Positions 2,905 to 24,044 of a stretch of 64,000 nucleotides of DNA are shown here, one piece after another. Where the stretch lies: the NCBI GenBank assembly GCA_964455625.1, contig CAYVXZ010000001.1, positions 8,150-72,149 of the forward strand, in the 5' to 3' direction. Under the pieces are notes generated by a model. That model saw nothing but the letters and a program-made list of their open reading frames with translations. It made no database searches and was not told the DNA's origin. The stretch's first letter is position 1; each line of letters begins with the position of its first letter. A program made the translations under genes and the position numbers. The DNA is from an uncultured Planctomycetales bacterium. GTDB taxonomy: Bacteria; Planctomycetota; SBBH01.

Positions 2905-2975
2905 AGCGGGTGAGGGGAATCGAACCCCCATGGCCAGCTTGGAAGGCTGGAGCTCTGCCATTGAGCTACACCCGC
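2905..2975 (-). tRNA. tRNA-Gly (anticodon UCC)
   Basis: The reverse complement folds as a cloverleaf. The acceptor stem is GCGGGTG/CACCCGC. The D-arm is GCTCAATGGCAGAGC. The anticodon stem-loop is CCAGC-CTTCCAA-GCTGG. The T-arm is GGTTCGATTCC. The discriminator is U and CCA is not encoded. Confidence 0.9.
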
Positions 2976-2977
2976 GA
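2934..2977. repeat. 44-bp direct repeat, copy 1 (tRNA-Gly positions 1-42 plus 2 upstream nt); putative att site
   Basis: Identical 44-mer 'ccagcttggaaggctggagctctgccattgagctacacccgcga' also present at 24001-24044 in the same orientation. Confidence 0.85.
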
Positions 2978-3068
2978 CAAGGCGGGAATTGTATCTCTCC
3001 GAGGGGAAACGACCAATCCACGATGCAGCAGAGTGCAGCCCGGCGCACCCGGGGGCAGGGATTACCTG

Positions 3069-3086
3069 CAAGCCGGCCTACATGCC
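3069..3086. repeat. 18-bp direct repeat 'caagccggcctacatgcc', copy 1 (about 90 bp inside the left island end); candidate arm-type integrase site
   Basis: An identical 18-mer lies at 23915-23932, about 85 bp inside the right island end. Confidence 0.6.
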
Positions 3087-3849
3087 GGCGTACAGCAGTA
3101 TCATTGGAAATGTGGACATTGAAAAACACCGGCGTCAAAGGCTCCTGCAAGAAGCCGATAGTGCTTTTTGTCGGCAGCTGGACCAACTCTGTGGAGAGTA
3201 CTACCGATTGTGCAGGGCGATAAGAATGTGGGGTCCCATTTCCGAGCCCGAGATTGGTCAGGTGTTGGAAGCCGCCCGCGGTCTCCTGCCGGACTTCCTA
3301 AAAGTGATGTCGCAGGTGGAATTCAAGACGTGCCTCACGGAAATAAAATCGACCCCTTCGCATCCTGCCCACAAGCCACTTGCCGACCTGAAGCGGTTCA
3401 GCGAGAGGAAGCTGAAGCTGAGTGGTCACCCACGCGATTTTCTTGAAGCCATCCAGGGAGACATTCAGGCGGTCTACAAGGCAGTGCATGGTTCGCCGAG
3501 CCCTCTTCAGCGTGAGGCCAAGAAGCAAAAGAAGAGATCTCCTCGATCAATAAGCGCCAAAAAAGAAAAGATCTCCCATCAAGAATTCTCGCACTCACCC
3601 GACTACCGTTCTGTGAATCTACGTGGCAAACGGTTCACCTTTACAGCTTTTCAGGCAGAAGCTGTAAAGGAACTGCACAATGCATTCAAGAATGGGACTC
3701 CGGACCTCAGTCAAGCGACCATCCTGTCGAAAATCGCTGCGCAGTCAGCTCGGTTAAAAGACATTTTTCGGGGTTCCAATGCATGGGGTTCCGTGGTCGT
3801 AAGGTCCTCTAAAAGAGGCGCGTATCGCCTCGGTATCGAAATTTCCTAA
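3082..3849 (+). CDS. hypothetical protein (island cargo, low GC)
   Basis: The ORF track gives 2989-3849. The in-frame ATG at 3082 is chosen because the longer ORF overlaps the tRNA repeat. There are no recognisable motifs. Confidence 0.35.
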   Translation: MPAYSSIIGNVDIEKHRRQRLLQEADSAFCRQLDQLCGEYYRLCRAIRMWGPISEPEIGQVLEAARGLLPDFLKVMSQVEFKTCLTEIKSTPSHPAHKPLADLKRFSERKLKLSGHPRDFLEAIQGDIQAVYKAVHGSPSPLQREAKKQKKRSPRSISAKKEKISHQEFSHSPDYRSVNLRGKRFTFTAFQAEAVKELHNAFKNGTPDLSQATILSKIAAQSARLKDIFRGSNAWGSVVVRSSKRGAYRLGIEIS

Positions 3850-3944
3850 ATACGCCACTCCCTCCCCCCTTATTACCACCCACCCCCGGCTAGCTTCCGT
3901 GCACAGGGGCGGGACCGGCTCGCCCCAGATTTTGTGATTTCCAA

Positions 3945-4370
3945 GTGGGGGCCTGGCCGGATAGCGCCCGCCCCCGATGGGCTTCCGGAGGGACTATGAG
4001 AAAGGACGAAAATACGAAGAGGTATTTTCAGCTCGGTCTGAAGATGCCGTTGAATTCGCCTCGCAGGGCGGAGCTGGCGCTTGATGAGCATAAAGCGGCG
4101 ATCATCCGCGGTCTTCGCATCGCTGCGAAGTGCTCCGTGAAGCTAAGCGAGGTCACGCCGTTCACCGCATGGAATGTAGGCTCGGGTCGCCATCCCGCAG
4201 CCGCGATCAGCGCCGGCGTGGCCTCCGAGATCCTGGCGGCTTTCGATGAAGAGGATGGGTTTCCGCCTGCAAGAGATGAGCTTTCCCAAAGCTTTCGGAA
4301 AATGGTTCGCTATCTCCGTGCGAAATGGGCTGCCGAGGAGGGGAATCGCCAGAATGGTTGGGCGAAATGA
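3945..4370 (+). CDS. hypothetical protein
   Basis: An ORF of 141 aa with no recognisable motif. It overlaps the start of the primase gene. Confidence 0.3.
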   Translation: MGAWPDSARPRWASGGTMRKDENTKRYFQLGLKMPLNSPRRAELALDEHKAAIIRGLRIAAKCSVKLSEVTPFTAWNVGSGRHPAAAISAGVASEILAAFDEEDGFPPARDELSQSFRKMVRYLRAKWAAEEGNRQNGWAK

Positions 4371-6241
4371 GCGCTCATGCTCCACTTCTTGGAGCCGCAC
4401 TTGCGCTGTTGATGCGGGGCTTCTCCGTGATCCCCCTCCGGCCGGGCGACAAGCGCCCCCAGACCCGCTGGGAAGCGTTTCAGACCAACCTCCCGACGGA
4501 AGTTCAAGTGCAAGCAGCCTGGGCGCACTGTCCCGACGCCAACGTCGGGATCGTGACGGGACGGGTGTCGGGGATCATTGTCCTCGACGTGGACGGCGCC
4601 GCAGGGAGGGAAAGCATTAGAGGAAAACACCTCCCGCCGACCCCGACTTGCAAGACCCCCCGGGGCGGACACTACTACTACCGCCACCCGGGTGGGCATG
4701 TCCCCAACGCCGTCGGCCTCCTCCCAGGGATCGATCTGCGCGCGGATGGTGGCTACGTGGTTACTGCCCCCTCTGTAAACGCGGAAGGTGTTCGGTACGA
4801 GTGGTGCGAGGGGCTGAGATTGGACGAGGTCGATCTCGCCCCGCCTCCACAGTGGCTCCTGGATCTTCTCGCCAAAAAGGAGCCCGCTCCTGTCGCTGTT
4901 CCGGTTGCCCAGGGTGCCGACGTCCTTCAAGGCGTCCCCGAAGGGCAACGGAACAATACCGCCGCGCGGATCGCCGGTCGCGTGCTGAAAGCGGGGCTCA
5001 ACCCCCAAGAGACGGAGGAGTTCTTGCTGTTCTGGAACCGCAAGAACAAGCCGCCCCTTCCAGAAGAAGAGGTCCGGGCCGTCGCCCGTTCGATCTCCGC
5101 AAGGCATGTTCCCGCTGGCGCTCCTCCCGCGGCGATCCCGGCGAAGTTCGCCGTCCCGATTAGCGCCCTTATGTCCGAGCCCGATGTCGAGATCGATTAC
5201 TTGGTCGAGCCTTTGGTCGAAGCGGGGACCATCGGCTTCGACGGCGGCGAGCCGAAGCTCGCGAAGTCGTGGCTCGCCCTGGCGATCTCGCTCGGCATTG
5301 CGACCGGGACGCCGGTCATGGACACCTTCCGTGTCCCGTTGCGGCGGCGGGTCCTGTACATTCAGGAGGAGGACTCGGCTTCCCTCGTGCGCCGACGCAT
5401 TCACCTGCTCTGCAGGGGGCATGGGATTCCGCTCCCCGATGACCAGTACTTTAGGTGTGCCGTCAGGACGGGGTTCCAGATCGACGATCCCGTGTGGTTC
5501 GCCGCGCTCTGCAAGGAGGTCGAGGAGTTCCGGCCGTCCTTGGTCGTCGCCGATGTTCTGAACAAGCTGCATTCGCAAGACGAGAACGAGCAGTCTGGCA
5601 TGACCCTGGTGATGCGCCAATTCGAGGAAATCCGGCGAAAGTTCGGATGCGCCTTTTTGATCGTCCATCACTTCCGTAAAGGCGATGCCTCCCGGGGGAA
5701 TCAGCGGCTACGGGGGTCGAGCGTCCTGGGCGGATGGAGCGAGTGCTCGCTGTACCTGAGCCCGGGGGATAACGGAACCCTTCGCGTGGAACGCGAGTCG
5801 AAGGCGGCACAGACGGAGCCCTTTTCGTTTCGACTGGAGGACCTGAAGGACGCGGACGGTCACCTTGTCGGCGTCCGCCTGGTCCACTTGGGGGAGGCGG
5901 TCGTCACCCCCAAAGACTCCAAGGGCGACGCCTTCCTTCGGGCCGTCCTGGAAGCTCATGCTGAGGGAGGCGAAGCCGCCTGCACGGCGGATGCCCTCGC
6001 CGCCAGGGCCAAGGTATCCGCGAACACGATCCGGACCTGGATGCAGAAGCTTTCCGACAGGGTCCATACTCATCAGATCCGGAACGCCGACGGCCGGGAG
6101 GTCACCGTCTACACCCCGATCACCGTGTCCGGGTCGACGAACTCAACTCAAAACCCCGGGGGAGCTGAGCTTCTGAGCCGTCCCGAAGGGGTCAAGGAGA
6201 GGGTCCCTACTCCCCCCTTCCCAGGTCCGGAGGCGGCATGA
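4367..6241 (+). CDS. bifunctional DNA primase/polymerase (Prim-Pol N-terminal domain) fused to P4/RepA-like AAA helicase domain
   Basis: The N-terminus ('GFSVIPLRPGDKRP...GIVTGRVSGIIVLDVDG') resembles the bifunctional primase-polymerase domain. The C-terminal half has RecA/DnaB-like P4-type ATPase motifs ('LYIQEEDSAS', 'FLIVHHFRK'). ATG at 4367. Confidence 0.7.
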   Translation: MSAHAPLLGAALALLMRGFSVIPLRPGDKRPQTRWEAFQTNLPTEVQVQAAWAHCPDANVGIVTGRVSGIIVLDVDGAAGRESIRGKHLPPTPTCKTPRGGHYYYRHPGGHVPNAVGLLPGIDLRADGGYVVTAPSVNAEGVRYEWCEGLRLDEVDLAPPPQWLLDLLAKKEPAPVAVPVAQGADVLQGVPEGQRNNTAARIAGRVLKAGLNPQETEEFLLFWNRKNKPPLPEEEVRAVARSISARHVPAGAPPAAIPAKFAVPISALMSEPDVEIDYLVEPLVEAGTIGFDGGEPKLAKSWLALAISLGIATGTPVMDTFRVPLRRRVLYIQEEDSASLVRRRIHLLCRGHGIPLPDDQYFRCAVRTGFQIDDPVWFAALCKEVEEFRPSLVVADVLNKLHSQDENEQSGMTLVMRQFEEIRRKFGCAFLIVHHFRKGDASRGNQRLRGSSVLGGWSECSLYLSPGDNGTLRVERESKAAQTEPFSFRLEDLKDADGHLVGVRLVHLGEAVVTPKDSKGDAFLRAVLEAHAEGGEAACTADALAARAKVSANTIRTWMQKLSDRVHTHQIRNADGREVTVYTPITVSGSTNSTQNPGGAELLSRPEGVKERVPTPPFPGPEAA

Positions 6242-6492
6242 GGAGCCCGCCCCCTGAAAAAGGCACGTCCCTTGCGGGAAATGCCCCCCGTGCGCTGTTC
6301 CGAGTCGAAGATGTGGCCCTGCTCCTGGGGATATCCCGCCGCCAGGTCTTCGCCATGCTGGCGGCGGGGCGAATCCCCGTTGTCCGCGTCGGAAAGCGCG
6401 TCGTCCGCTTCATCCCAGGCGAGATCGACGCATGGGTCCGGGCCGGCTGTCCCGGCGTCACGGAGTTCCGCCGCGCGCATCCCGAAAATTGA
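6238..6492 (+). CDS. AlpA/excisionase-family helix-turn-helix DNA-binding protein
   Basis: The motif 'VEDVALLLGISRRQVFAMLAAGRIPVVRVGKRVVRFIPGEIDAWV' is typical of MerR-like excisionase/AlpA HTH. It lies immediately upstream of the integrase. Confidence 0.7.
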   Translation: MRSPPPEKGTSLAGNAPRALFRVEDVALLLGISRRQVFAMLAAGRIPVVRVGKRVVRFIPGEIDAWVRAGCPGVTEFRRAHPEN

Positions 6493-6535
6493 CATGGATA
6501 TGGGAGGCGTGTTTCGATTTTTCCGGTAAGACCAA

Positions 6536-7780
6536 ATGGCGAGCATCTTCCAACCCGTCTACGTGAAGAAGCTCGCTGACGGCCGGCGTGTGCGCCGGAA
6601 GAGCAAGGTGTGGCGGATCGAGTATTTCGACCCCGGCCTCGGCAGGCGGGTGAGGAAGAAGGGGTTCCGGGACAAGATGGCGACCGACATCCTGGCGGCG
6701 GACCTCGAAAGGCGCGCAGAGAGGCGCGTCGTCGGCGCCGTGGACGAGTTCGAAGAAGCGCGGGCGACACCGCTCGAACAGCACTTTTCCGATTATCAGG
6801 TTCATCTGGCGAACTCCGGGGTCTCGCAGAAGCATCTCGCGGAAACATCGAGGCGCATCAAGGAACTTATCAGTCATTCAAAAGTCGTCCGGCTCCATGA
6901 GATCCGGCCCGCCCACTGTGATGGTGCCTTGAAGGCCATCCGGACGCGGGGAGCCGGCCCCCGCACCCTCAACACCTACGGCGCCTCGTGGCGCGCATTC
7001 ATTCGCTGGGCTATACGGTCCAGGCGTCTTTCCGCCGACGCGGACCCGACGGTGACGATCGCCAAGCTGCGCGAGTCGGAAGACGTGCGCCGGCAACGGC
7101 GCGCCCTCGTGCCGAAAGAAATCGAGCGGCTTCTGACCGCTACCGCCTCCCGGCCGCTCGCCGAGGCCATCCGAAAGAACCCCGCCCTATCCATGGAATC
7201 GAGGCGTGCCTTGACCCTGGAGGGGATCGAGAGGGCCTTGATCTACAAAACCGCGATCCTGACGGGGCTCCGCCGAGGCGAGATTGAGGCGCTTCGCTGG
7301 AGCGACCTCCAACTGGATTCCAAGAGACCGAACGTCCATGTGCGGGGGTCAGTCGCCAAGAACGGCCGCGAGGAATACATGCCCCTCCGGGCGGATTTGG
7401 CGCATGAACTTTCGGAATGGCGCAAGATGCGGGTAACCCGTCCGGACGAACCGGTCTTCCAGGGACTCCGGAGAATCGTGGATCACCTGAAACTGGACCT
7501 TCAGTTCGCGGGGCTGAAGTACAGGGACGAATCCGGCCGCTTCTTCGATTTTCACGCATTCAGACACTGCACCGCAAGCTACCTCGCGCGGGGCGGTGTG
7601 GCCCCCCGCGTGGCGCAAAGCCTGATGCGACACGCTGACATCGGGCTCACGATGGGCGCCTATACCGACCCGATGCTTCTGGACAAGGTCTCCGCCCTTG
7701 ATGCCTTGCCGATCCTGCCGAGGGCGGTGCTTCCGGAAGGCCTTTTCGTGGTCGAGGAGCCGGTTACGAAGACAGCCTAA
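6536..7780 (+). CDS. tyrosine site-specific recombinase (phage-type integrase)
   Basis: The C-terminal catalytic region shows the R...HxxR...Y signature ('LRRGEIEALRWSDL', 'HAFRHCTASYLARGGV', 'LMRHADIGLTMGAYTD'). Confidence 0.85.
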   Translation: MASIFQPVYVKKLADGRRVRRKSKVWRIEYFDPGLGRRVRKKGFRDKMATDILAADLERRAERRVVGAVDEFEEARATPLEQHFSDYQVHLANSGVSQKHLAETSRRIKELISHSKVVRLHEIRPAHCDGALKAIRTRGAGPRTLNTYGASWRAFIRWAIRSRRLSADADPTVTIAKLRESEDVRRQRRALVPKEIERLLTATASRPLAEAIRKNPALSMESRRALTLEGIERALIYKTAILTGLRRGEIEALRWSDLQLDSKRPNVHVRGSVAKNGREEYMPLRADLAHELSEWRKMRVTRPDEPVFQGLRRIVDHLKLDLQFAGLKYRDESGRFFDFHAFRHCTASYLARGGVAPRVAQSLMRHADIGLTMGAYTDPMLLDKVSALDALPILPRAVLPEGLFVVEEPVTKTA

Positions 7781-7856
7781 GGCGGCACCGAGGGAATGAC
7801 CACTCGGGTCACAAGTAACGCCCTGTTTTGTCATATGACGTGCTCTGTCGGTTACT

Positions 7857-8456
7857 GTGGCTACGGGTCATGAAGGCCGGGCGGTGGAGCCCGGCGTATA
7901 CGACGAGGTGGGAAGAACTTTCCGCCGTGAGAAGATGAGTCTGACGATCCAAGGCTGGCCCTGCAAAATAAGATCACCCAACTTGCAGAAGGCGATTAGC
8001 CTCGTGCTACGTTCCGTCAGCAAGACCCATCCCGAGGATTATCAGAGGCTCATGAAGCGAGTGAGTGAATTCGGCCCCTTATCCATGCGCGATCGTAAAG
8101 ATGGAATCGTCGGTTGGTATGGCAAGCGGCGGCGCAGCGGGGAATATGACTTCGATTCTCCAGGGTCCATCCTCTTGCGCGAGGATGATTCGTTCTCCAT
8201 CGCAACTGTTGCTCACGAGCTTGGTCATGCATGCACGAGGGAGGATGATTTCTGGAAGCGCGATGGTTTAGATGCGGAGTGGGCGAGCGAGCTCTGCGCG
8301 GACATGTATGCGTACAAATGGGGTTTCGGCAGAGAGATTGCCCGAAGCCGCAAAGAGCGGGACTTCATGCATCACGGTCCACCGCCGGGAACTGTCGTCG
8401 AGTGCAATGGATCGAGGTTTCGGGTGACACGAGCTTTTTACATTAGACCTTTCTGA
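7857..8456 (+). CDS. hypothetical protein with HExxH motif (possible metallopeptidase-like)
   Basis: 'VAHELGHAC' matches HExxH. There is no other recognisable similarity. The gene is low-GC. Confidence 0.35.
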   Translation: MATGHEGRAVEPGVYDEVGRTFRREKMSLTIQGWPCKIRSPNLQKAISLVLRSVSKTHPEDYQRLMKRVSEFGPLSMRDRKDGIVGWYGKRRRSGEYDFDSPGSILLREDDSFSIATVAHELGHACTREDDFWKRDGLDAEWASELCADMYAYKWGFGREIARSRKERDFMHHGPPPGTVVECNGSRFRVTRAFYIRPF

Positions 8457-8571
8457 AATGCGCGACCGCTTCACCCTCGTAGCCACTCTTGATCAGAGCC
8501 TCACCCGATACAACCTGCCTTGTCATGGATGATGCCTCGTCTCGTCATGTGATGCGTTCGATCGGCACGAT

Positions 8572-8802
8572 GTGTTCGGGGCATCCATGCCAGCGAAACG
8601 TCCGCCCGTCTACGTCCTCAAGGTGACTCTTCAGGACAGCAAGCCGCCCATCTGGCGTCGGCTCGCCATCAAGCCGAACACCTCCCTCGCCAAGCTCTAT
8701 GCCCATGACCGAAGAGAATGTCCTGACCGGCATCGAGCTTGCCCTGAGCCGCCGCTAAGCTTTCCATCTCGGCATGATCGATCGTCCCATCGGGCATCCT
8801 GA
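8572..8802 (+). pseudogene. truncated fragment of plasmid pRiA4b ORF-3-like family protein
   Basis: The N-terminal 30 aa 'VYVLKVTLQDSKPPIWRRLAIKPNTSLAKLYAH' matches the conserved start of the PRiA4_ORF3 family. The reading frame then degenerates. Confidence 0.45.
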
Positions 8803-9090
8803 ATCCCGTGGAGCCGAGCCGTCTGGGCTTTCCAGAAATCAACCCGTAAATGGGGATGCAGCTATCCAGCGGCAGGACTTTTTTACGAATCGTTCATCCT
8901 GATGATTGCTGGGACACCGCCGGGTCTCCAGGGGCACCGTTCGCCTCGTAAAAACAGGCGTAGTCGCCCGGCGACCGGATTCCCGTGACGGCCGCGACCC
9001 CGATGAGACGCCGGGAATTCCGTTGATCGGAACGACCTCCGCGCTATTATGTGACGCATTAGTCCGTTATCTAAACGTCCAAGAGCCTCC

Positions 9091-9738
9091 TTGCCCGCGA
9101 CATCCCCGCCCCTTCCGAAACCCGGCCGGCCCCGCGATCCCACCCTGCCCGCCCGCCGCCGGGAGGAGATCCTCGAGGCCGCCCAGCGCGTCTTCGCCGA
9201 CCGCGGCTTCCACAAGACCGACGTCGGAGAGATCGCCGTGGATCTCGGTCTCGGCAAGGGGACCCTGTACCGGTACTTCCCGTCCAAGGAGGCGCTGTTC
9301 CTGGGCGCGGTGGACCGGGGCATGCGCCTCCTGAGGGAGGCGGTCGAGCGGGCGGAAGAGGGGGCGACGGATCCCCTCCAGCGCGTGTCCCGTGCGGCGC
9401 GCGCCTACCTGGCCTACTTCGACCGGAATCCCGCCCTGGTCGAACTCCTGCTCCAGGAGCGCTCGCATTTCAAGGCGCGCAAGAAGCCCACCTACTTTGC
9501 CCACCGCGACGCCAATCTCGGGCCCTGGCGGAAGACCTTCCGGAACCTCATCCGGGAGGGTCGGGTCCGGGACGTCCCCGTGGACCGCATCACCGACGTC
9601 ATCAGCGACCTCCTGTACGGAACGATCTTCACCAACTACTTCGCCGGACGCCGGAAGTCCTTCGAGGCCCAGGCACAGGACGTCCTCGACGTGCTCTTCC
9701 ACGGGATCCTGTCGCCGGGAGCAGGGCCGCCCGCATGA
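9091..9738 (+). CDS. TetR/AcrR family transcriptional regulator
   Basis: N-terminal TetR HTH ('ILEAAQRVFADRGFHKTDVGEIAVDLGLGKGTLYRYFPSKEALF'). It sits upstream of an efflux operon. Confidence 0.85.
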   Translation: MPATSPPLPKPGRPRDPTLPARRREEILEAAQRVFADRGFHKTDVGEIAVDLGLGKGTLYRYFPSKEALFLGAVDRGMRLLREAVERAEEGATDPLQRVSRAARAYLAYFDRNPALVELLLQERSHFKARKKPTYFAHRDANLGPWRKTFRNLIREGRVRDVPVDRITDVISDLLYGTIFTNYFAGRRKSFEAQAQDVLDVLFHGILSPGAGPPA

Positions 9739-11102
9739 CCCGGTTCCGTCGAGGCCTCCTTCTCGCGCTCCTATCCGCCTGTCCTGGCTGTGCGCCGCCC
9801 GGCGGAAACCCCGCCATCGTCCTTTCCCGTCCGGCCCCGGCGCCCTCCCCTCCTGCGGCCGCGGCGCCCGCCGCCCAGGGCCCGCTGACGCTGGAGGACT
9901 GCCTCCGCATGGCCGAGTCCCGCAGCCGCCTCATCGCCATCGCCGACCGGCGCGTCCTGATCGCCGACGACCGCCTGGGGGAGGACCTGGGCGCCGTGCT
10001 GCCCAAGCTGACGGCCGAGGGCCGGTACGACGGGCGCGACAACGACCGCGGGACGCGGCTCCCCACGGGAAGCTTCGTCGCGGGGGAACGGGAGACCACC
10101 TCCCTGCGGCTGGGGCTCGTGGTGCCGATCTACGATTTCGGACGTTCCTCCTCCCAACGCGACGCCGACCGCTTCCGGATCGACGCGGCACGCCATGACG
10201 CCAGGCACGTGCGCGGGGAGGTCGCCTTCGCGGTCAGCCAAGCCTATTTCCGCCTCCTGGAGGCACTGAAGATCCGGGACGTCGTCGAGGGGTCGATCCA
10301 GATCCTGGAGCGTCAGATCGAGACGGCCCGGGACTTCCTGAAGCAGGGTCTCGTGGCGCGCTCTGACGTGCTGACGGCCGAGGTGCAGATGGCCGAGCGC
10401 CGCCAGGACCTCGTCCGGTCGCGGAACAACATCGACCTCGCCCGGGCGACCTTGAACCGCCTCCTCGGGCTCGACGTCGAGCATCCGACCGAGGTGGTCG
10501 ACATTCTGGAAGCGCCCCCGTTCTCGGGAAGCTTCGGCCCCCTCCTGGAGCTCGCCCGGCAGCGGCGTTCCGACGTGGCGGCGTTGCGCGCCCAGCTCCA
10601 GGCCGTCCAGTTGGAGTACCGGTCCGTCAGCCGGGGCAACCTCCCCTCCCTCTTCGGCACGGCGGGCTACAACCGATCCTCGGACGACACTCTCCTCAAC
10701 CGGGACTGGAGCGACGCCGCCATCGTCATGCAGGTCCCCCTCTTCGACGGTTTCGTCAACCGCCACCGCACGGAGAGGACGGGCCGGGAGGCCGCCGAAG
10801 CGAAGGACCTCATCGAGAACCGCCTCGACGACCTTTCCCTGGAGGTGAAGCAGGCGTGCCTGCTGATCTCGGAGGCGGTGGAGCAGGTGCCTGTGGCGCG
10901 CAAAGGCGTCGCACTCGGCACCGAGAACCTCCGCGTGGTCCGCGACCAGTACGGGGAGGGGCTGGTGACGAGCGCCGACGTGCTGGCGGAGGAGGACCGG
11001 CTGAGCCGCGCTCGCACGAGCTACTTCCGCGCCCTCTATGAGAGCCACGTGGCCTACACGCGTCTGGTCCACGTGATCGCCGGTCCGCCGGCAGAAAGGT
11101 GA
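9735..11102 (+). CDS. TolC-family outer membrane efflux protein
   Basis: Lipoprotein-like signal ('LLSACPGC'). Two TolC-like repeats. The start overlaps the TetR stop. Confidence 0.75.
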   Translation: MTRFRRGLLLALLSACPGCAPPGGNPAIVLSRPAPAPSPPAAAAPAAQGPLTLEDCLRMAESRSRLIAIADRRVLIADDRLGEDLGAVLPKLTAEGRYDGRDNDRGTRLPTGSFVAGERETTSLRLGLVVPIYDFGRSSSQRDADRFRIDAARHDARHVRGEVAFAVSQAYFRLLEALKIRDVVEGSIQILERQIETARDFLKQGLVARSDVLTAEVQMAERRQDLVRSRNNIDLARATLNRLLGLDVEHPTEVVDILEAPPFSGSFGPLLELARQRRSDVAALRAQLQAVQLEYRSVSRGNLPSLFGTAGYNRSSDDTLLNRDWSDAAIVMQVPLFDGFVNRHRTERTGREAAEAKDLIENRLDDLSLEVKQACLLISEAVEQVPVARKGVALGTENLRVVRDQYGEGLVTSADVLAEEDRLSRARTSYFRALYESHVAYTRLVHVIAGPPAER

Positions 11103-16571: not shown

Positions 16572-16582
16572 GGCTGGAAGGA

Positions 16583-16813: not shown

Positions 16814-16828
16814 ATATGAAAGCTAGAA

Positions 16829-17416
16829 ATGAAATACGATTGTAGACAGGTACAGTTGTATGTATTTACCATCCGGGTGGGAGGGAGAGCCGTTATGAGC
16901 CAGTGTCAGCCCGAACGCAACTTCGTCAGCACCTACCTCCGCCGATGCGAGGCGTACGACTTCATCGTCGAAGACCTCCCGCTCTTTCCGGAGCGCGGCC
17001 TGTGGGACACGATCGACCTGGCTGGATTCGACCTCATGAAGGGCCGCGGGGTCCTCTGCGAGGTCCTCCCCCTCCCACCGGGAAACGTCATCGGAGAACC
17101 TGATCGCCAAACCATCCAGAGGCTCGAAAAGAAGCTGGTCCATGCGTACAGGTTCGTGAGGGAGCGGATGGTGGTCCTGAAGCGGGGCATCCGCTTCCAG
17201 GTCTGGTCCCCCAGTCTTTCCGCTCCACTGAAGAGGGACCTCCAGAGGATTGCTAAGAAGGCTCATCTCCCCGTGGATGTGATCACGGACGAGGCGTATG
17301 CCGCTCGGGTCGATCAACTCCTCAAGAAAGCCAAGCAGGATAGGACGCTTTGGGGCGAGCCTTTCTATCGGCTGATGCGGATCGCTCAACACGCCGGCAA
17401 AAGCATGCGGAGGTGA
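16829..17416 (+). CDS. hypothetical protein
   Basis: An ORF of 195 aa (alternative start at the Met near 16895). It is divergent from the XRE regulator. No domain is recognised. Confidence 0.4.
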   Translation: MKYDCRQVQLYVFTIRVGGRAVMSQCQPERNFVSTYLRRCEAYDFIVEDLPLFPERGLWDTIDLAGFDLMKGRGVLCEVLPLPPGNVIGEPDRQTIQRLEKKLVHAYRFVRERMVVLKRGIRFQVWSPSLSAPLKRDLQRIAKKAHLPVDVITDEAYAARVDQLLKKAKQDRTLWGEPFYRLMRIAQHAGKSMRR

Positions 17417-17425
17417 CATGATCGG

Positions 17426-17758
17426 ATGGTCCTGGAAGGAGAGCACATGCAAAGCAGAATGATGGGGACGGTCTTACTGGCTTTCCTGACAGCAGGTTGC
17501 AACGAGCAGGAAAAGCTTCAGAAAGAAAACGCCTCTCTCGAAACACAAACCCAGAAGCTGGAATCGGAAATCGCGCAGCTCAAGGATATTCCGGGATGGC
17601 ACTTCTATATGGGAGTGGACGCCATGAATCGGAAAGACTGCCAAGTGGCTAAGAACGAATTCGATTGGGTGGTGTCGAAGACCAATGGTTTACTCAAGTC
17701 AGAAGCCAATGACCTCTGGTATGAGTTGGCAAGGCCGGAAGGGGGATCTCAACGATGA
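17426..17758 (+). CDS. lipoprotein with coiled-coil segment
   Basis: Lipobox 'LTAGC' after a hydrophobic signal. A heptad-rich region follows. Confidence 0.5.
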   Translation: MVLEGEHMQSRMMGTVLLAFLTAGCNEQEKLQKENASLETQTQKLESEIAQLKDIPGWHFYMGVDAMNRKDCQVAKNEFDWVVSKTNGLLKSEANDLWYELARPEGGSQR

Positions 17759-18513
17759 AATGCATAGTTGCGGGTGTGGCCCCCCTGATGATGGGGCTTC
17801 TGCTGGTCGGATGCGGTGATGAGAAAGAATTGGACCATCTCAAGGCTCGGAATTCCGAATTGGCAAGCAGGGTATCAGACCTCGAAAAAGAACTCTCAAA
17901 ACTGAAGGAAGCCGAAAGCTTTCAAGGCGCGCTTTTAGCACTCGATCGGCAAGACCATGACGTCGCGCTCATGTATCTCAAAAGTGTTGTCACTAATCAG
18001 AGAAGCCCGCTGGCACCATTCGCGAACCGGTATTTAAAACAAGTTGAATCCACCATTGAGGCAAGGCGTCAGGAGCAAGCGCGAAAAGAAAAGGAGAAAA
18101 AGCGGAGGACACAGGTCCTGGAAATCAATCGTCAATACGAGGCCGCCCTATTGTCCGGCGACAAACAGAAGATTTCCCTGCTGAGACCAAAATGGGAAGC
18201 GTTCCATCCGACTGCGAGAAAGGTCAGTGAAGATTTTGGGCGAGGCAAGGAGAAAGGACAGGCGTGTGCCAGATCCGGCACGGGAAGCCTTGGCCAGATC
18301 GGAGCTTTTCCAAACCACCTAGTGGATAACCTCGTCGACAAGATGTACGACCAAATGTCCGGTGGATTCGGATTTCGTGGAGAATCACAGGATTTTAGGC
18401 TTGGTTGGAAATGCGGTTTTATGGAAGCAAATGGTATCGGCGGTGAACCTTACAGGCGACTTCTGGAAAAGATTGCAGATCGAACCAGTGAAGCAATCAA
18501 GCAAGATGAATAA
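17755..18513 (+). CDS. lipoprotein with coiled-coil and K/E-rich region
   Basis: Signal plus lipobox 'LLLVGCG'. It overlaps the previous stop. Confidence 0.5.
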   Translation: MKCIVAGVAPLMMGLLLVGCGDEKELDHLKARNSELASRVSDLEKELSKLKEAESFQGALLALDRQDHDVALMYLKSVVTNQRSPLAPFANRYLKQVESTIEARRQEQARKEKEKKRRTQVLEINRQYEAALLSGDKQKISLLRPKWEAFHPTARKVSEDFGRGKEKGQACARSGTGSLGQIGAFPNHLVDNLVDKMYDQMSGGFGFRGESQDFRLGWKCGFMEANGIGGEPYRRLLEKIADRTSEAIKQDE

Positions 18514-18518
18514 GCCTG

Positions 18519-19220
18519 ATGCTGGCCGCTGCGTACGACCTGGTCATGATCCTGGACGGGCTGACCCCCGCTGAGAGGGACCTTGGTGGGATCTCCCGTT
18601 CCTTGGCCCGCTTCCTGTCCCAGCGGGGCGTCGACCAGGTATGGGCTCATGCCGGATCGGATGACCCGGAAGAGATCCGAAAGTCGCTACTCGACACTTT
18701 GGAAACCTGCCGGAGAAACGCCGTGGATGGGGAGAGATTTCCAGTCCATTTGGTCTGTCGGAGAAATCAGGAGGGAGTGATTTGCGGGAGTGGCCGTAGG
18801 GCAGGTCTCCTGACCTGGGATGAGCTATCGAAGCGGCTCGAAGTCATCAACCGGGCCATGAATGGCGCCCTCCTCGTCAACATCTCCTCCTGTCGTGGGA
18901 TGCAGGAAGTCGCCTCTTTCCGGCCTCCTCCTCTCAAGAGGCCGTCCTACGCCATGGTGGGGTTTCTGGAATCAGTTCCCGCCGGGGTCAACCGCAGAGC
19001 GAACGAACTCTTCTATGGACAGCTGATAGAGGGCTCGACGGTCCAGGGGGCAGTCAGGACCGTCAACCGGCAGATGGGCAGGAAGATCCTTTATTCGACT
19101 GTCCCGACAGACCGCCGAAAACTGTCCAGGGGCCTCTGGGACCGGCATCCGGGGCTCCGGGTTGCAGGGTCCTCCATATACCCATGCCCAATTTCCGGCC
19201 AGTCCCCGCACGAAAAATAA
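18519..19220 (+). CDS. hypothetical protein, possible caspase/CHAT-like (clan CD) fold
   Basis: A His-Gly segment ('VHLVCRRNQEGVICGSG') is followed by 'LLVNISSCRG', reminiscent of the caspase QACRG catalytic Cys motif. Weak; inference only. Confidence 0.35.
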   Translation: MLAAAYDLVMILDGLTPAERDLGGISRSLARFLSQRGVDQVWAHAGSDDPEEIRKSLLDTLETCRRNAVDGERFPVHLVCRRNQEGVICGSGRRAGLLTWDELSKRLEVINRAMNGALLVNISSCRGMQEVASFRPPPLKRPSYAMVGFLESVPAGVNRRANELFYGQLIEGSTVQGAVRTVNRQMGRKILYSTVPTDRRKLSRGLWDRHPGLRVAGSSIYPCPISGQSPHEK

Positions 19221-19831
19221 AAGATTCTTCTCGCCGCCTATCCAGGGGTAAGTCCCCATCCGATCAGAAATATCTTCCTCTCAAGGTACCCGACGTATTT
19301 CTGGCACCCATGTCTCCAATCGCATCAAATCTCGAATATCCCCTGCCAGTTATTCTGGAAAGTAAACGTGTGGGCATAGCCGCCAGCCGATCACGCAAGA
19401 TGAACTCCAGAACCCGATTCGGACCCATCGAGATCCCCCTCCGATCCATCCTATTGGTCGAGGCGTCAGACGATTCCACGACAGCATGGGTCAAGAATCT
19501 GGCGATCCGGGAAGCCACCAGAGGCAGACGGGTCGTCTGGGTCTCCCTCCGGGAATCCGCCGATGCCCTACAGCCGCTCGCGGAGAAGGGGGTGACCATC
19601 GTCGACATCGGCCGGATCGACGAGGCGACCTTCTTCCAGTTGATCCGGCTCAAAGGGAAGACTGACCGAATCCTCTTCGTAGACGGCCTGGACTTGGTCA
19701 GAGACAAAGGTCAGATAGACCCTGACCTGGCGGTAGAGACAGCCGTGGGGATTCTCATGAACCAGGCCAAGAGATACCCATTCACAGCCGTGGCCACCTA
19801 CCAGCAGGAACCAGCCCTCGATACTATCTGA
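19184..19831 (+). CDS. hypothetical protein, possibly degenerate RecA/KaiC-like fold
   Basis: 'RRVVWVSLRESADAL...ILFVDGLDLV' resembles RecA-superfamily strands without an intact Walker A. Inference. Confidence 0.3.
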   Translation: MPNFRPVPARKIKDSSRRLSRGKSPSDQKYLPLKVPDVFLAPMSPIASNLEYPLPVILESKRVGIAASRSRKMNSRTRFGPIEIPLRSILLVEASDDSTTAWVKNLAIREATRGRRVVWVSLRESADALQPLAEKGVTIVDIGRIDEATFFQLIRLKGKTDRILFVDGLDLVRDKGQIDPDLAVETAVGILMNQAKRYPFTAVATYQQEPALDTI

Positions 19832-19928
19832 CCGTCAAGCGGACCCCTCCCCCTCCGAAAGGGTATCGGGCAACTTCCGATAAGGTTGGTGCCTATCTTG
19901 AAAGAACTGTTATTTTGTCCTGCAGGAC

Positions 19929-21158
19929 TTGGGTGCTTGCAACGAGGAGATGGGTATGACTGAAGCCACGCGCTCATATGGCGACCGTGCGGACCAGGTC
20001 CACCAGTTCTTCGAGAAGAAGCGAGAGTGGTCCAAGATCAAGGACAGGATAGTTGGGTCCTACATTTCCTGTTACCTGAAGACGGTTCAGCATCGTGGTC
20101 GTCCCATCATCATTGTGGATGCCTTTTGCGGCCCTGGGCGTTTCGGCGACGGTAATGATGGATCGCCAGTGATCATTTGTGACACGATCGCCAAGATGAA
20201 CGCCGGCGTTGGCATTGGGTGCTTGTTCGCCGATTCACATCAAAAACATCGTGACGAGCTTGAAGCTTGCCTGGCTGAACACATGAAAACCGGAATTGCA
20301 GGGAAGCCTCTGTCGGATTTCTCAGAGGCTCTTTCACAAGCATTAACAGTAGGTAGAGGCTCAACCTTGTTCTTCTACCTGGACCCATATGGCATCAAAG
20401 ATTTGGATTTCGAGGTCGTGAAACAAATCTACGAGCGGGACACCGCCCAAAGCACTGAGGTTCTGATTAATTTCAATTTCAAAGCCTTCATGAGAATGAG
20501 CGGGAACTGGTCCTACGCTGATTCAGTCGACGAAGTGGCCCGGAAGGTGAAGGAATCGAAAATCGAAAAAGTTAACAGCGTCATGGGCGGCGACTACTGG
20601 TTGGCAATCGTCACCAACCCAGCTCTGAACAAGATTCAGCGAGAAGACGCGGTAGTGGACGCGTATATGGGGCAAGTCAGAAAATACTTCAAGTACACCT
20701 ACTCGATTCCTGTGAAGGAAATGGATGAGGGTGATCGGGACGTTCCGGCTGACGACCTAGCAAAGTATCACCTGATTTTCGGCACGCGCAGTCGCAGAGC
20801 AGTTCTGTACATGAACGATGTGGCCGGCAACGCGTTGGAGCCGTACTTCAAACAGTTCAAAGACGGTCTCCTTTTCGAGATGACTCCGGAAAGGTACGCA
20901 GCAGCCTCGAGGGAGGCAGTGAAGGCTGAAATCCTGAAGGTGCTTGCCAGTGGTCCTATGAAAAGGAAAGAAATCTACGAAGCCGTGGTCCCGGGTTTTT
21001 TTCTGCACTACCGCTCAAAACATTACCGAGCCATGATTGACGAAATGGTCTTCAGTGAGGGACAGCTATTTGCCGATCCAAAGACGATGAAGCGAAAAAA
21101 CCAGCTTAACGAAACGACGCGCCTCGCGACGAAACCTTGGCCAGCTGGCCAGCGCTAA
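19929..21158 (+). CDS. three-Cys-motif partner protein TcmP-like
   Basis: About 400 aa. It lies directly upstream of, and is translationally coupled (TAATG) to, a Gp37/Gp68 three-Cys protein, which is the characteristic TcmP arrangement. Assignment is by context and length. Confidence 0.5.
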   Translation: MGACNEEMGMTEATRSYGDRADQVHQFFEKKREWSKIKDRIVGSYISCYLKTVQHRGRPIIIVDAFCGPGRFGDGNDGSPVIICDTIAKMNAGVGIGCLFADSHQKHRDELEACLAEHMKTGIAGKPLSDFSEALSQALTVGRGSTLFFYLDPYGIKDLDFEVVKQIYERDTAQSTEVLINFNFKAFMRMSGNWSYADSVDEVARKVKESKIEKVNSVMGGDYWLAIVTNPALNKIQREDAVVDAYMGQVRKYFKYTYSIPVKEMDEGDRDVPADDLAKYHLIFGTRSRRAVLYMNDVAGNALEPYFKQFKDGLLFEMTPERYAAASREAVKAEILKVLASGPMKRKEIYEAVVPGFFLHYRSKHYRAMIDEMVFSEGQLFADPKTMKRKNQLNETTRLATKPWPAGQR

Positions 21159-21883
21159 TGAGCGCCACGTCAACCATAGAGTGGACCAACGCAACCTGGA
21201 ATCCGGTCACAGGTTGCACAAAGATCAGTCCTGGGTGCAAGCATTGCTACGCTGAAGTTTTTGCGGAGCGTTGGCGAGGGATCTCCGGGCATCATTTCGA
21301 GCAGGGATTTGACCTCCGGCTTTGGTTTAAGCGGCTAGAGCTCCCGCTTACCTGGAAAACGCCGCGAACCATTTTCGTGAACAGCATGAGCGACCTCCTT
21401 CATGAGAAGGTGCCCACTTCATTTATTCGGAGGGTATTCCAGACCATGGAGCAGGCATCGTGGCACACGTTCCAGGTTCTGACCAAGCGCTCGGAAAGGC
21501 TGGCAGAACTGGCACCAACCCTAGACTGGCCATCCAATGTGTGGATGGGGGTGTCCATTGAAAGCGCTGATTATCTGTGGCGAGCCGATCACCTTCGTGA
21601 AGTGCCTGCTGCGGTGAGATTCTTGTCCTTGGAGCCTTTGCTGGGACCTCTGGGAGTCATAGATCTGACAGACATTGATTGGGTCATCGTGGGCGGGGAG
21701 AGCGGTCCTGGTGCTAGACCTATGGAGGCCGACTGGGTTAGGGACATCAGCAAGCAGTGCCGGAGAGAAAATGTCTCATTCTTCTTTAAGCAGTGGGGCG
21801 GCGTACAAAAGAAGCGGACAGGAAGGACTCTCGATGGGCGTACGTGGGATGGCATGCCAAAGGGTCATCTTCTGGGAGTCTGA
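21158..21883 (+). CDS. phage Gp37/Gp68 family (DUF5131) three-Cys-motif protein
   Basis: N-terminal 'IEWTNATWNPVTGCTKISPGCKHCYAE' carries the C-x6-C-x2-C motif typical of the family. ATG at 21158 overlaps the upstream stop. Confidence 0.7.
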   Translation: MSATSTIEWTNATWNPVTGCTKISPGCKHCYAEVFAERWRGISGHHFEQGFDLRLWFKRLELPLTWKTPRTIFVNSMSDLLHEKVPTSFIRRVFQTMEQASWHTFQVLTKRSERLAELAPTLDWPSNVWMGVSIESADYLWRADHLREVPAAVRFLSLEPLLGPLGVIDLTDIDWVIVGGESGPGARPMEADWVRDISKQCRRENVSFFFKQWGGVQKKRTGRTLDGRTWDGMPKGHLLGV

Positions 21884-21973
21884 CCGGACCCCCCGGAACT
21901 AAACCATTCTTTTCGAAATCCAGCAAAACGTCTGAATGTCCACATCTCCCTTGGGAGCTGATATGGGGAACGT

Positions 21974-23116
21974 TTAAGGTTGCACAGCCAGTTTTAACAT
22001 TTCAGCCATCAACTCCTCTCGAACCAGAGGTTTCCCATTGAGGATTACTTGTCCGAAGGTGTCATTTTCAATTTCTCTCCCAGCACTATCGTAGGCATGG
22101 ACATGAATGCCAATTTCTTGTGGCCGATCCATAGTCCAAACGAATGCTGGGGTGGAAGCCCATATCTCATAGGTACACCCACGCAATTCATCTAAATTTA
22201 ACGATTTGTCGACAAGGATCACCTTCTTGTTTTGAGTGATCACATCGAAAACTCGTTTTAACGGATTACTAACGATGGCCTTCTTGCTCCAATTCGAATC
22301 TCTGCCACAACTAGCACAAAGATGTTTTCTGTGCGGAGCTGCGGCAAAGGCCCCAAGGTCCAAGTGTGGTTCGTTGCAATAGCTGCACATTAGGCAATCG
22401 AGTGGCAACTTCTTCTCCACAGCTTGAACAAATGACCACGCAGCCGGTGGTGTTGCGTTGATCCTCACGGTGGGCTCTTTAGAAAGAAAAAGTGACGGCT
22501 CCTTGAGCGATAACTGGATTGCCTTATAGGTCTTATCAATTATTTTTGTTCCGCCCGCCTTGATTCTTGCGTGCACATGAATTCCAACCTCGCAGCTTGG
22601 CTTCACACGGGTGCTGAGCGCTGTCGGGAGTGAAGCCCAGACGCCAACTCCTCCAGGATAGTCTGCTGGATCAATAATGACCGGGTCGATCACGTAGCTC
22701 AGCGGCATGGTGGCATTCGAGCAAACGATGCGCTGACCAGGTCTCTTTGGAGCTGTAGCTAGATCCGCCTGAGTACCCCAGTAGACTTGGTGTGTACGGC
22801 ACCACATCCGCTCTTTGCCATGTCTGTACTTTCCCGCTGGAATGATCTCGCATGGCAATACGGCATCTTCCCCGGATTTTTCTTTTGGAAAACTACCTAG
22901 TACGTCTTCGGAGTGAACTGCGATATTTCCTATTGTTCTGCCACGAGACCACACGATCGCTCTGCGATGTGCCAGCAAGTCGTCGTTTGGCGGCTGTTCT
23001 TTTCCAAGTATCTGAATGGGGCGAACCACGCCCTTTTTTTGGGCCTTGTCGTAATCCTCCTCAGCAAGCTCCAGGTAGGTACCGTCGAGATGTAGTACGC
23101 GTCTGATGAATGGCAT
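21974..23116 (-). CDS. hypothetical Cys-rich protein with internal duplication
   Basis: An ORF of 380 aa with repeated '(E)(V/I)GIHVHA' modules and a 'CSYC...CASC' cluster. No known domain. It is convergent with the TcmP pair. Confidence 0.45.
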   Translation of the reverse strand: MPFIRRVLHLDGTYLELAEEDYDKAQKKGVVRPIQILGKEQPPNDDLLAHRRAIVWSRGRTIGNIAVHSEDVLGSFPKEKSGEDAVLPCEIIPAGKYRHGKERMWCRTHQVYWGTQADLATAPKRPGQRIVCSNATMPLSYVIDPVIIDPADYPGGVGVWASLPTALSTRVKPSCEVGIHVHARIKAGGTKIIDKTYKAIQLSLKEPSLFLSKEPTVRINATPPAAWSFVQAVEKKLPLDCLMCSYCNEPHLDLGAFAAAPHRKHLCASCGRDSNWSKKAIVSNPLKRVFDVITQNKKVILVDKSLNLDELRGCTYEIWASTPAFVWTMDRPQEIGIHVHAYDSAGREIENDTFGQVILNGKPLVREELMAEMLKLAVQP

Positions 23117-23311
23117 CCAGAAATTCTCCTGGTAGCGTTAGAGCGTTGATTCCGGATTGCGGAAGTGCCTAAGCCCCAGATGGACTGTCATGGGATCATG
23201 CTAGTCGATTCTTAATCTGTTGCCCACCGAGCCGGACAGCGCTGTGTCAACCAGTACCAGAGGACGTCGGGGCCTGTTCCTCAAGGGCACGTGAAGCCCT
23301 CTTCAATTCCA

Positions 23312-23399: not shown

Positions 23400-23405
23400 C
23401 CTGCC

Positions 23406-23642
23406 ATGACTACTGCGACGATTGCCCAGGAGGCCGTGCGGCTCATCAAGCATCTGCCTCGTGAGAAGGCGCAGGCTCTTCTGGAATACGCCCGGTACTT
23501 GGTCGAAAGCACCGGCGAGGAGGTCTGGGAGCACAGGCTGAGTGACCCCAGGCATGCCAAGAAGCTGAAGGACTTGGGCGAAAAGGCGCGGAAAGAGTTC
23601 CGCGACGGGAAGACCCGGCCGCTCGACTCCGACAAGATGTGA
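23406..23642 (+). CDS. type II antitoxin (78 aa)
   Basis: A small acidic/basic protein whose stop overlaps the toxin start (ATGA). This is a typical TA pair organisation. Confidence 0.6.
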   Translation: MTTATIAQEAVRLIKHLPREKAQALLEYARYLVESTGEEVWEHRLSDPRHAKKLKDLGEKARKEFRDGKTRPLDSDKM

Positions 23643-23902
23643 TCTCACACGCCTCGGGTTCCTTCCGGAGGCAGCTCCAGACCCTCCAAAAAGATGTTCA
23701 GAAGAGGGCTCGATCAGCCTTCAGGTTGTTCAAGCGGAATCCCCATCACGCCTCCCTGAAGTTCAAGCGCCTCTCGGGCTTGACGGACTACTGGTCTGCC
23801 CGGATCGGCCCTCACTACCGCGCCGTAGCAGTCCGTGAAGGTTCGACCCTGATCTGGTTCTGGATCGGCAGCCACGCCGACTTCGACCGGGATTTCAGGT
23901 AG
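23639..23902 (+). CDS. RelE/ParE-family toxin (type II TA, mRNA interferase-like)
   Basis: 87 aa. 'LKFKRLSG...YWSARIGPHYRAVAV...LIWFWIGSHADF' matches the RelE/ParE plasmid-stabilisation toxin core. Confidence 0.7.
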   Translation: MISHASGSFRRQLQTLQKDVQKRARSAFRLFKRNPHHASLKFKRLSGLTDYWSARIGPHYRAVAVREGSTLIWFWIGSHADFDRDFR

Positions 23903-23914
23903 GGGGGTCGTCTA

Positions 23915-23932
23915 CAAGCCGGCCTACATGCC
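23915..23932. repeat. 18-bp direct repeat 'caagccggcctacatgcc', copy 2
   Basis: Identical to 3069-3086. Confidence 0.6.
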
Positions 23933-24000
23933 AGGCTTTCTGGAAGCTCCGGCAGGCTTTCTCTCCCTCGGGAAACGGCCGGTCTCGGGTCGGAACTGCA

Positions 24001-24044
24001 CCAGCTTGGAAGGCTGGAGCTCTGCCATTGAGCTACACCCGCGA
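24001..24044. repeat. 44-bp direct repeat, copy 2 (5' fragment of tRNA-Gly; putative att site)
   Basis: Perfect identity to 2934-2977. The flanks diverge. Confidence 0.85.

Follow-up and report, generated by a model that had tools for sequence, protein, structure and literature searches.

A genomic island bounded by copies of the tRNA-Gly(TCC) 5′ part in an uncultured planctomycete, probably integrated through the anticodon loop

We analysed a stretch of 64,000 nucleotides from an uncultured Planctomycetales bacterium (GenBank assembly GCA_964455625.1, contig CAYVXZ010000001.1, positions 8,150 to 72,149 of the forward strand), hereafter the window, which holds an island of about 21 kb next to a tRNA-Gly(TCC) gene. 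We propose that the island's own lambda-type integrase inserted it site-specifically, with the crossover in the tRNA-Gly(TCC) anticodon loop, from an element attachment site (attP) that carried the 5′ part of the tRNA together with its upstream region. We consider this explanation probable (roughly 0.7). The anatomy of a tRNA-integrated island is present: an intact tRNA gene (tDNA), a co-oriented cognate fragment, an integrase whose catalytic residues are all present, a gene of the AlpA type and an atypical composition. The polarity of the attachment (att) sites is the reverse of that in the integrase family to which the island belongs.

The repeat at the island ends corresponds to the 5′ part of tRNA-Gly(TCC)

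ARAGORN identifies two tRNA genes in the window, one of which is tRNA-Gly(TCC). The exact 44-bp direct repeat around the island, on which the original prediction was built, was recovered with a repeat finder and by direct reading of the letters, and the distance from repeat start to repeat start is 21,067 bp. The elements of the site are as follows.

2904-2975, minus strand: intact tRNA-Gly(TCC) gene (ARAGORN; Rfam RF00005, 68.9 bits)
2934-2977: left copy of the 44-bp repeat (tRNA positions -2 to 42)
24001-24044: right copy of the repeat, read as the displaced native 5′ fragment of tRNA-Gly (attR), behind the native upstream region
2934-2950, with a second copy at 24001-24017: anticodon stem-loop, the putative core site

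Since the tRNA gene is on the minus strand, its position 1 corresponds to 2975 and its position 42 to 2934. The repeat thus spans positions -2 to 42, in agreement with its earlier assignment to tRNA positions 1-42, and comprises two upstream nucleotides, the 5′ strand of the acceptor stem, the D arm and the entire anticodon stem-loop (CCAGC CTTCCAA GCTGG). It stops at the last base (3′ edge) of the anticodon stem, and past this edge only 6 of 30 positions are identical. The 5′ fragment is located upstream of the intact gene and in the tRNA's own orientation, with fragment and tDNA co-oriented, which is consistent with the earlier placement of the island upstream of the intact tRNA. A search with the tRNA sequence found no tRNA-like or att-like remnant inside the island (2978-24000). 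The island is flanked by the genes for a TPR-repeat Ser/Thr kinase (56-2455, minus strand) and for a B12-binding radical S-adenosylmethionine (radical-SAM) enzyme (24124-25551).

The island encodes a single integrase with a predicted lambda-like build

The recombination genes of the island are adjacent to each other, with the integrase gene (int) 3.5 kb and 16 kb away from the two junctions.

6238-6492, plus strand: AlpA/HTH_17 protein, a likely excisionase or directionality factor; homologues are found upstream of int in many relatives
6536-7780, plus strand: tyrosine integrase of 414 amino acids (aa), PF00589

The integrase matches PF00589 with E = 4.6e-17 and has no other Pfam match; Xer-like models matched weakly. 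The catalytic residues R246, K275, H340, R343, H366 and Y376 are invariant in 39 homologues. In the AlphaFold2 (AF2) model (predicted local distance difference test score, pLDDT, of 91) a five-stranded N-terminal sheet (residues 3-42) is followed by a long helix and by core-binding and catalytic domains. Full-length lambda Int is the best PDB match of the model (1z1b and 1z1g; Foldseek, ~370-395 aligned columns). The modelled structure thus points to a three-domain build like that of lambda Int, with a separate N-terminal domain. The window holds a single member of this integrase family.

Homologues of the integrase share 31-47% identity over 85-97% of the query, with E values down to 1e-84, and almost all of them come from Planctomycetota genomes or metagenomes. 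More distant relatives occur in predicted proviruses (IMG/VR scan).

Relatives target the same stem-loop and carry the tRNA 3′ part

For comparison we used 80 genomic loci with homologous integrases (L004-L083), all turned so that int reads on the plus strand. About 65 of these have a minus-strand tRNA ~200-300 bp downstream of the int stop codon, and 2 more loci end at a contig edge. In the usual layout of the family, the element thus lies 3′ of the tRNA and int is beside the intact gene. Many different tRNA species are targeted. L004, L006 and L007, which are the closest genomic relatives (40-45% identity), use tRNA-Gly(TCC), with the anticodon loop found in the window and four of the five stem pairs identical.

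For eight relatives the whole element is present in the DNA retrieved, with sizes of 7.8-11.4 kb. The direct repeat in seven of them begins at tRNA position 25-31, which is in the anticodon stem (5′ strand), and continues to the 3′ end of the tRNA or beyond it; the eighth (L080) has a shorter exact run, covering positions 49-75. The repeat in the window is the mirror image of this arrangement, and its sole overlap with the repeats of the relatives is the anticodon stem-loop.

L007 has an extra copy of the tRNA 3′ part just before its intact tRNA-Gly(TCC) gene (~11540-11625), in which the identity extends to base three of the anticodon loop before 26 nt of unrelated DNA follow. This copy is the leftover junction of a lost tandem element and puts the crossover of the family inside the loop. 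Because the repeat boundaries of the relatives and the L007 remnant converge there, we place the family crossover in the anticodon loop.

The original prediction had left a choice between a core site in the 5′ half or anticodon stem of the tRNA and a different integration history. The comparison favours a core at the anticodon stem-loop, the only sequence shared with the repeats of the relatives. The whole 5′ half does not appear to be the core; it is better described as the segment that restores the gene. The unusual polarity of the att sites, also proposed originally, is borne out, since in all relatives whose junction can be read it is the 3′ part of the tRNA that the element carries, and recombination on the 5′ (5′-distal) side of tRNA genes is described as considerably less frequent (PMC6563490; PMC8371274).

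Downstream of int in the window (7780-9100), where the relatives have attP, we found no tRNA-like sequence and no arm sites. A similar displacement is seen in one of the closest homologues, L241 (P0004; Logan SRR13206479; 43% identity). The L241 contig starts inside the 3′ part and anticodon stem-loop of a minus-strand tRNA-Gly(CCC). Homology to the tRNA extends as far as the 5′ edge of the anticodon stem; beyond it come motifs of the GCATG(T/A) type on the minus strand and then int on the plus strand. L241 therefore shares the layout of the window, with attP upstream of the int operon and arm sites parallel to the tRNA, but it has a junction of the 3′ type. The difference between the two comes down to essentially one feature: in the window, the tRNA 5′ part and upstream sequence lie between the core and the arm sites, and there is no 3′ part on the other side.

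From these arrangements we assign the window to a subclade whose attP has been rearranged, and take the reversal of polarity as a separate change. L241 combines a window-like attP with a 3′ junction, which shows that attP has changed its position and orientation within the family independently of polarity. We also considered a mirror-image attP, with flipped arm sites, as the cause of the reversed polarity, and dropped it, as L241 has the same arm orientation together with a 3′-type junction.

Predicted arm-type sites lie inside both ends of the island

A second direct repeat is located inside the two copies of the 44-bp repeat. It was originally described as an 18-bp repeat about 90 bp inside each end; it is real and slightly longer, with 20 of 21 nucleotides identical between 3066-3086 and 23912-23932. 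The exact 18-mer occurs at 3069-3086 and 23915-23932 only, and was not found elsewhere in the window when 3 mismatches were allowed (0.05 expected).

The attP sites reconstructed for the complete relatives have a tandem pair of a ~10-nt motif in each arm, with a period of 12 bp and in direct orientation on both sides. Approximately 45-50 loci have such a tandem pair ~150-215 bp from the 3′ end of the tRNA (modal distance 172), with the consensus G(C/T)TTG(C/T)ACCA, and matching sites are present in the other arm. L005 carries two copies of GCATGTACGCC, and L004, L006 and L007 carry two copies of GCTTGGCG. A tandem-arm layout of attP, with the sites at a fairly uniform distance from the tRNA, is common to this Planctomycetota-wide integrase family, across many tRNA species. 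We found no description of this conserved layout in the literature searched.

A position weight matrix (PWM) was built from the relatives alone and used to scan the whole window on both strands for tandem matches (~128,000 positions). The match at 23931 on the minus strand, GCATGTAGGCC GGCTTGTAGACG, ranks second, and the match at 3085 on the minus strand, GCATGTAGGCC GGCTTGCAGGTA, ranks third; both are at most ~110 bp away from the copies of the 44-bp repeat. They correspond to the 18-mer read on the opposite strand, so that the earlier suggestion of arm-type sites is recovered from an independent set of sequences. The sites are arranged as follows.

3063-3098, minus strand: left-arm sites, three units with a 12-bp period, CTGCTGTACGCC, GGCATGTAGGCC and GGCTTGCAGGTA; CTGCTGTACGCC is weaker and precedes the pair
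23909-23932, minus strand: right-arm sites, two units with a 12-bp period, GGCATGTAGGCC and GGCTTGTAGACG

The window units GGCATGTAGGCC, GGCTTGCAGG and GGCTTGTAGA fit the family consensus (G(C/T)TTG(C/T)ACC or GCATGTACGCC). The two window sites are copies of each other and count as one observation, repeated in the right places. The motif comparison supports the assignment of the 18-mer to predicted arm-type integrase sites typical of the family. In canonical relatives the arm motif is on the int strand and antiparallel to the tRNA, whereas in the window it runs parallel to the tRNA, on the strand that does not carry int.

The two copies of the tRNA 5′ part have related upstream sequences

The two upstream regions next to the repeat copies are:

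2978-3020, minus strand: element-borne tRNA-upstream sequence, with a -10-like TACAAT (2993->2988) 12 nt before tRNA position 1
24045-24087: native upstream region, with a -10-like TAGACT (24061->24056)

When the 45 bases past the repeat are aligned, the element side and the native side give a score of 12. Either region aligned with the upstream regions of 114 other tRNA-Gly(TCC) genes with the same 5′ part gives a mean of 2.6-3.2 and a maximum of 9. A local alignment of the two regions scores 13, a value reached by 5 of 1000 shuffles. Both regions have a -10-like hexamer at equal distance from the tRNA. A scan for sigma-70 consensus promoters found none upstream of either tRNA copy.

The resemblance of the element-borne upstream sequence to the native one suggests that the element carries a diverged copy of the 5′ part and promoter-proximal region of a tRNA-Gly gene, captured from some host.

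A model for integration

We propose that the crossover took place in the anticodon loop, with the 7-nt loop as the overlap and the stem as the inverted core-type sites. The attP would have carried the tRNA 5′ part (positions 1-42) and ~25-45 bp of promoter-proximal upstream sequence; the attP of the relatives carries the 3′ part. Integration would leave an intact gene at the primase/integrase end of the island, composed of the island-supplied 5′ part with its upstream DNA and the native 3′ part. The intact tRNA would then be a chimera (attL), in which positions 43-72 are native, and the upstream sequence and all or part of positions 1-42 come from the island. The native promoter region would be left at the far end with a dead 42-nt 5′ fragment. 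We speculate that an attP of this kind may have originated by aberrant excision of an ancestor, in which the 5′ part of a host tRNA-Gly gene was picked up along with its promoter region. The model predicts the following junctions for the empty chromosomal site (attB) and for the circular element.

2904-2977 joined to 24045 onward: predicted attB, CCCCCATGG-(44 bp)-AGACGGCGGGAAGTC
23960-24000, repeat, 2978 onward: predicted attP, GGTCGGAACTGCA-(44 bp)-CAAGGCGGGAATTG

We infer that this integrase made this junction, by cleavage flanking the 7-nt loop. The reconstituted tRNA-Gly is probably transcribed from island-borne DNA. The island may still be able to excise, in which case the AlpA protein would act as the directionality factor.

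The comparison with the relatives leads us to a further hypothesis, which we hold tentatively and rate at somewhat below even odds. The island could represent a polarity switch in a family that otherwise has 3′ polarity, in which the same anticodon-loop core was kept, the restoring segment was swapped for a captured 5′ part with its promoter region, and the host tRNA-Gly(TCC) came to be transcribed from the DNA of a mobile element.

Gene content and composition of the island

Through most of the island the GC content is 0.50-0.65, whereas the flanks have 0.68-0.74; only the efflux operon departs from this, with a GC content of ~0.70. The composition separates most of the island from its surroundings. 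The gene content agrees with what had been read from the sequence originally: the integrase, the AlpA protein, the Prim-Pol/helicase, the efflux operon, the low-GC genes and the ParE-like toxin. Besides the AlpA and integrase genes, the island contains the following features.

2989-3849, plus strand: open reading frame (ORF) without family match; called as 221 or 286 aa in L001/L002
3996-4370, plus strand: small ORF without Pfam match; called in L002
4325-6241, plus strand: primase/helicase with Prim-Pol, PriCT_1 and AAA_25 domains; start probably at 4358
7857-8456, plus strand: ORF without assigned function
8587-8700, plus strand: truncated N-terminus of the PRiA4_ORF3 type, a 32-residue stump (30.2 bits, profile positions 2-32 of 173)
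9091-9738, plus strand: TetR regulator
9735-11102, plus strand: outer-membrane factor (OEP)
11111-12187, plus strand: membrane-fusion protein (MFP)
12184-15285, plus strand: RND pump
15500-23200: low-GC cargo (GC 0.50-0.58) of ~8 kb, mostly genes without assigned function
19929-21158: TcmP (TIGR04474, 116 bits)
21137-21883: DUF5131/Gp37-Gp68
23406-23642, plus strand: putative antitoxin, without significant family match
23639-23902, plus strand: ParE-like toxin

The listed TTG start of the ORF at 2989-3849 overlaps the arm sites, and the true start is therefore probably further downstream. The PRiA4_ORF3 stump marks the scar of an internal rearrangement between the integrase module and the TetR-RND operon. 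Within the low-GC cargo, the pair of TcmP and DUF5131 genes (19929-21883) matches the PADLOC candidate defence systems PDC-M30/PDC-M41, with E = 2e-114 for the B component.

Related loci and the search for an empty site

Metagenome contigs were scanned with the 42-nt 5′ part of the tRNA for a locus without the island. The scan gave 120 loci, comprising 117 full tRNAs and 3 cut at a contig edge; none was syntenic with the window and no other 5′ fragments were present. We also found no syntenic kinase-tRNA-radical-SAM locus among contigs with the radical-SAM gene (exact, or the 87% identical relative) or the kinase gene (exact, a cluster mate, or homologues of 47-48% identity). The kinase homologues are at most 48% identical and not syntenic. 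Logan contigs of the same organism from three runs (SRR8109493, SRR8109492 and SRR6202010) all break 30 nt into the 44-bp repeat. These contigs cannot distinguish occupied, empty and circular forms, because an assembly with k = 31 breaks in the repeat. As no empty site was found and no circular form could be examined, we infer the mobility of the island from its anatomy and from the comparison with the family.

In a second sample, contig L001 represents a mosaic form of the island that shares the left junction and, apart from a few substitutions, the left arm. Its positions 1-1350 correspond to window positions 2949-4420, with 86% identity over 2949-3517 and an unrelated module in place of 3517-4420. 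Over window positions 4420-15086, which include int and the efflux operon, the identity is 99.5%. Because the stretch from int to the RND gene is conserved beside a different left module, the efflux operon appears to travel with int.

The only close relative of the right flank is L084 (Logan SRR27828366), in which the radical-SAM protein is 87% identical (~75% identity at the DNA level). On the tRNA side, L084 has a truncated Asp/Glu racemase gene and is not syntenic with the window. Directly upstream of its radical-SAM gene (~530-552, plus strand) there is a 20-nt exact fragment of the tRNA-Gly 3′ part, TCGATTCCCCTCACCCGCTC, in the orientation opposite to that of the fragment at the equivalent place in the window.

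The region beyond the 3′ end of the tRNA in the window also contains tRNA-like sequence. At 2720-2736, 170 bp past the 3′ end, 16 of 17 positions match the 3′ part of tRNA-Gly (acceptor 3′ strand and T arm) in the orientation of the gene (E = 0.05 in the window). A single strong arm motif of the family type, CCTTGCACC, is located between this match and the tRNA (2869, minus strand). The match may be a remnant of an older insertion with the usual polarity. Contigs L207 and L208, from the same organism in two runs, end at window position 2789, 115 bp short of the tRNA, and no repeat was found there. A variant at the strain level or a break in the assembly within 2737-2903 may account for their end.

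Alternative explanations

Several observations weigh against integration of the island by its own integrase from an attP with the tRNA 5′ part. The int gene is distant from both junctions, whereas most relatives have it beside attP. The arm sites are on the opposite strand, and their spacing from the core is ~78-90 and 131-155 bp, versus ~62-74 and 180-211 bp in canonical relatives; given these differences in strand and spacing, attP must be regarded as rearranged and may not be functional. Neither an empty site nor an attP circle or excision product was observed, and no full sigma-70 consensus was detected upstream of the reconstituted tRNA. The GC content of the efflux operon is host-like, so that some of the 21 kb may have been captured from the chromosome. 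The fragment in L084 suggests a more complicated local history, with repeated events linked to tRNA-Gly. The main residual doubt is a secondary rearrangement at a locus that holds other tRNA-Gly debris.

In such a scenario one or more elements of the usual polarity would have inserted at tRNA-Gly, and later inversion, deletion or recombination of att-derived sequences would have left a fixed fossil, without an attP bearing the 5′ part ever having existed. We regard this as unlikely. The debris at 2720-2736 and in L084, with its 20-nt 3′ fragment in the opposite orientation, is compatible with it, as is the rearranged state of the element (the PRiA4_ORF3 scar at 8587, the remote int gene and the arm sites on the other strand). 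L241, in which arm sites oriented as in the window accompany a 3′-type junction, also fits. However, we found no simple inversion or deletion that turns the order 3′ fragment-element-full tRNA into full tRNA-element-5′ fragment with an exact 44-bp repeat bounded by the anticodon stem, and no tRNA remnants are present within 2978-24000. Moreover, the element-side upstream sequence is a diverged homologue of the native region and not a copy of it, which fits a captured segment in attP. A mobile unit smaller than 21 kb is quite unlikely in our estimate: in that case some of the bracketed DNA, above all the TetR-RND operon, would be a piece of the chromosome that was captured or became enclosed by att sites, or two elements would together make up the island. 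The GC content of the operon, which resembles that of the flanks, the scar between the integrase module and the operon, and the small size of the complete relatives all agree with this possibility. Evidence against it is given by the lack of att-like or tRNA-like sequence inside the island, by the presence of a single integrase, and by the 99.5% identity of the int-to-RND stretch in a second sample with a different left module. A smaller unit concerns the history of the cargo and is compatible with the explanation that we favour.

It is highly improbable that the right copy (24001-24044) is the remnant of a second tRNA-Gly gene, which arose by tandem or dispersed duplication and decayed, with mobile genes lying between the two copies by chance. 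Rfam does report a full-length tRNA match at 23974-24042 on the minus strand, with 32.8 bits against a gathering score of 29. This score, however, is made up of the 42 identical nucleotides and an acceptor-like complement, without a T arm, and approximately 45% of random 40-mers from the window provide such a complement. The segment 23971-24000 is no closer to 44 distinct tRNA-Gly(TCC) 3′ parts than 29% of random segments are, and ARAGORN makes no call at the right copy. The identity drops from 44 of 44 to 6 of 30 exactly at the edge of the anticodon stem, whereas decay would scatter the mismatches, and arm sites of the family type flank both copies. The original prediction had named a decayed gene at this position as a finding that would contradict an island; with the sharp edge of identity, the missing T arm and the chance-level similarity to tRNA 3′ parts, we reject it.

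Comparison with known systems

Almost all elements that integrate in tRNA genes restore the 3′ part and keep the host promoter, and exceptions are described as very few (PMC8371274). For recombination on the 5′-distal side in bacteria, PMC6563490 refers to Zhao & Williams (2002), and it also names several archaeal cases. For the pTN3-like integrases of Thermococcales (Cossu et al., 2017), as reviewed in PMC8371274, attB is described as the 5′ half of a tRNA gene and an uninterrupted tRNA is restored. Those integrases are archaeal, belong to plasmid- or virus-like elements and target the 5′ side as a group, whereas the window holds one exception in a family with 3′ polarity.

The core site that we propose falls in the anticodon-loop class of the sublocation scheme of Williams (2002), which, as outlined in PMC8371274, includes SSV1 Int and ‘classical bacterial’ cases and has the 7-nt loop as overlap and the stem as symmetric core sites. 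In both that class and the window the block of identity is bounded by the anticodon stem; the block in the window runs to the 5′ end of the tRNA and not to the 3′ end. The Islander pipeline allows for a 5′ fragment upstream of the tDNA (PMC4383910), and the following features of an island of this type are found here: an intact tDNA, a co-oriented fragment in the allowed 5′ configuration and an integrase gene in between. Island finders that expect 3′ fragments beside the integrase would mis-call or miss this island.

The resemblance to lambda Int and its attP consists in the predicted three-domain fold, repeated sites in both arms ~80-155 bp from the core and a small HTH gene beside int. The structure-based identity to lambda Int is ~17%, the target in the window is a tRNA gene, and the predicted arm sites are tandem pairs with a 12-bp period and a different consensus. 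Islands of the P4/CP4-57 type are similar in combining AlpA, a Prim-Pol/helicase and an integrase in a tRNA gene. P4-type integrases have an N-terminal arm-binding domain, Pfam DUF4102. The window integrase is without this domain, int does not adjoin the tRNA and the polarity is reversed. An element of Mesorhizobium loti is reportedly a precedent for reversed polarity in a bacterium. It shares the reversed polarity with the window and has a host of a different phylum.

The window is thus a further example of a documented, uncommon kind of tRNA-associated island. It contributes a new context, with a single element of 5′ polarity within a well-sampled family of 3′ polarity that uses the same type of core site. 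A comparison set is at hand, with dozens of homologous integrases of the usual polarity acting on the same kind of core site, the closest genomic relatives using the same tRNA-Gly(TCC) stem-loop. This makes it testable whether the symmetric anticodon stem-loop alone fixes the crossover, how an attP gets rebuilt and what becomes of a tRNA under element-borne signals. If the island does represent a polarity switch, it would be a tractable system for studying how the restored side of a tRNA changes and how an element takes over the control of a host tRNA.

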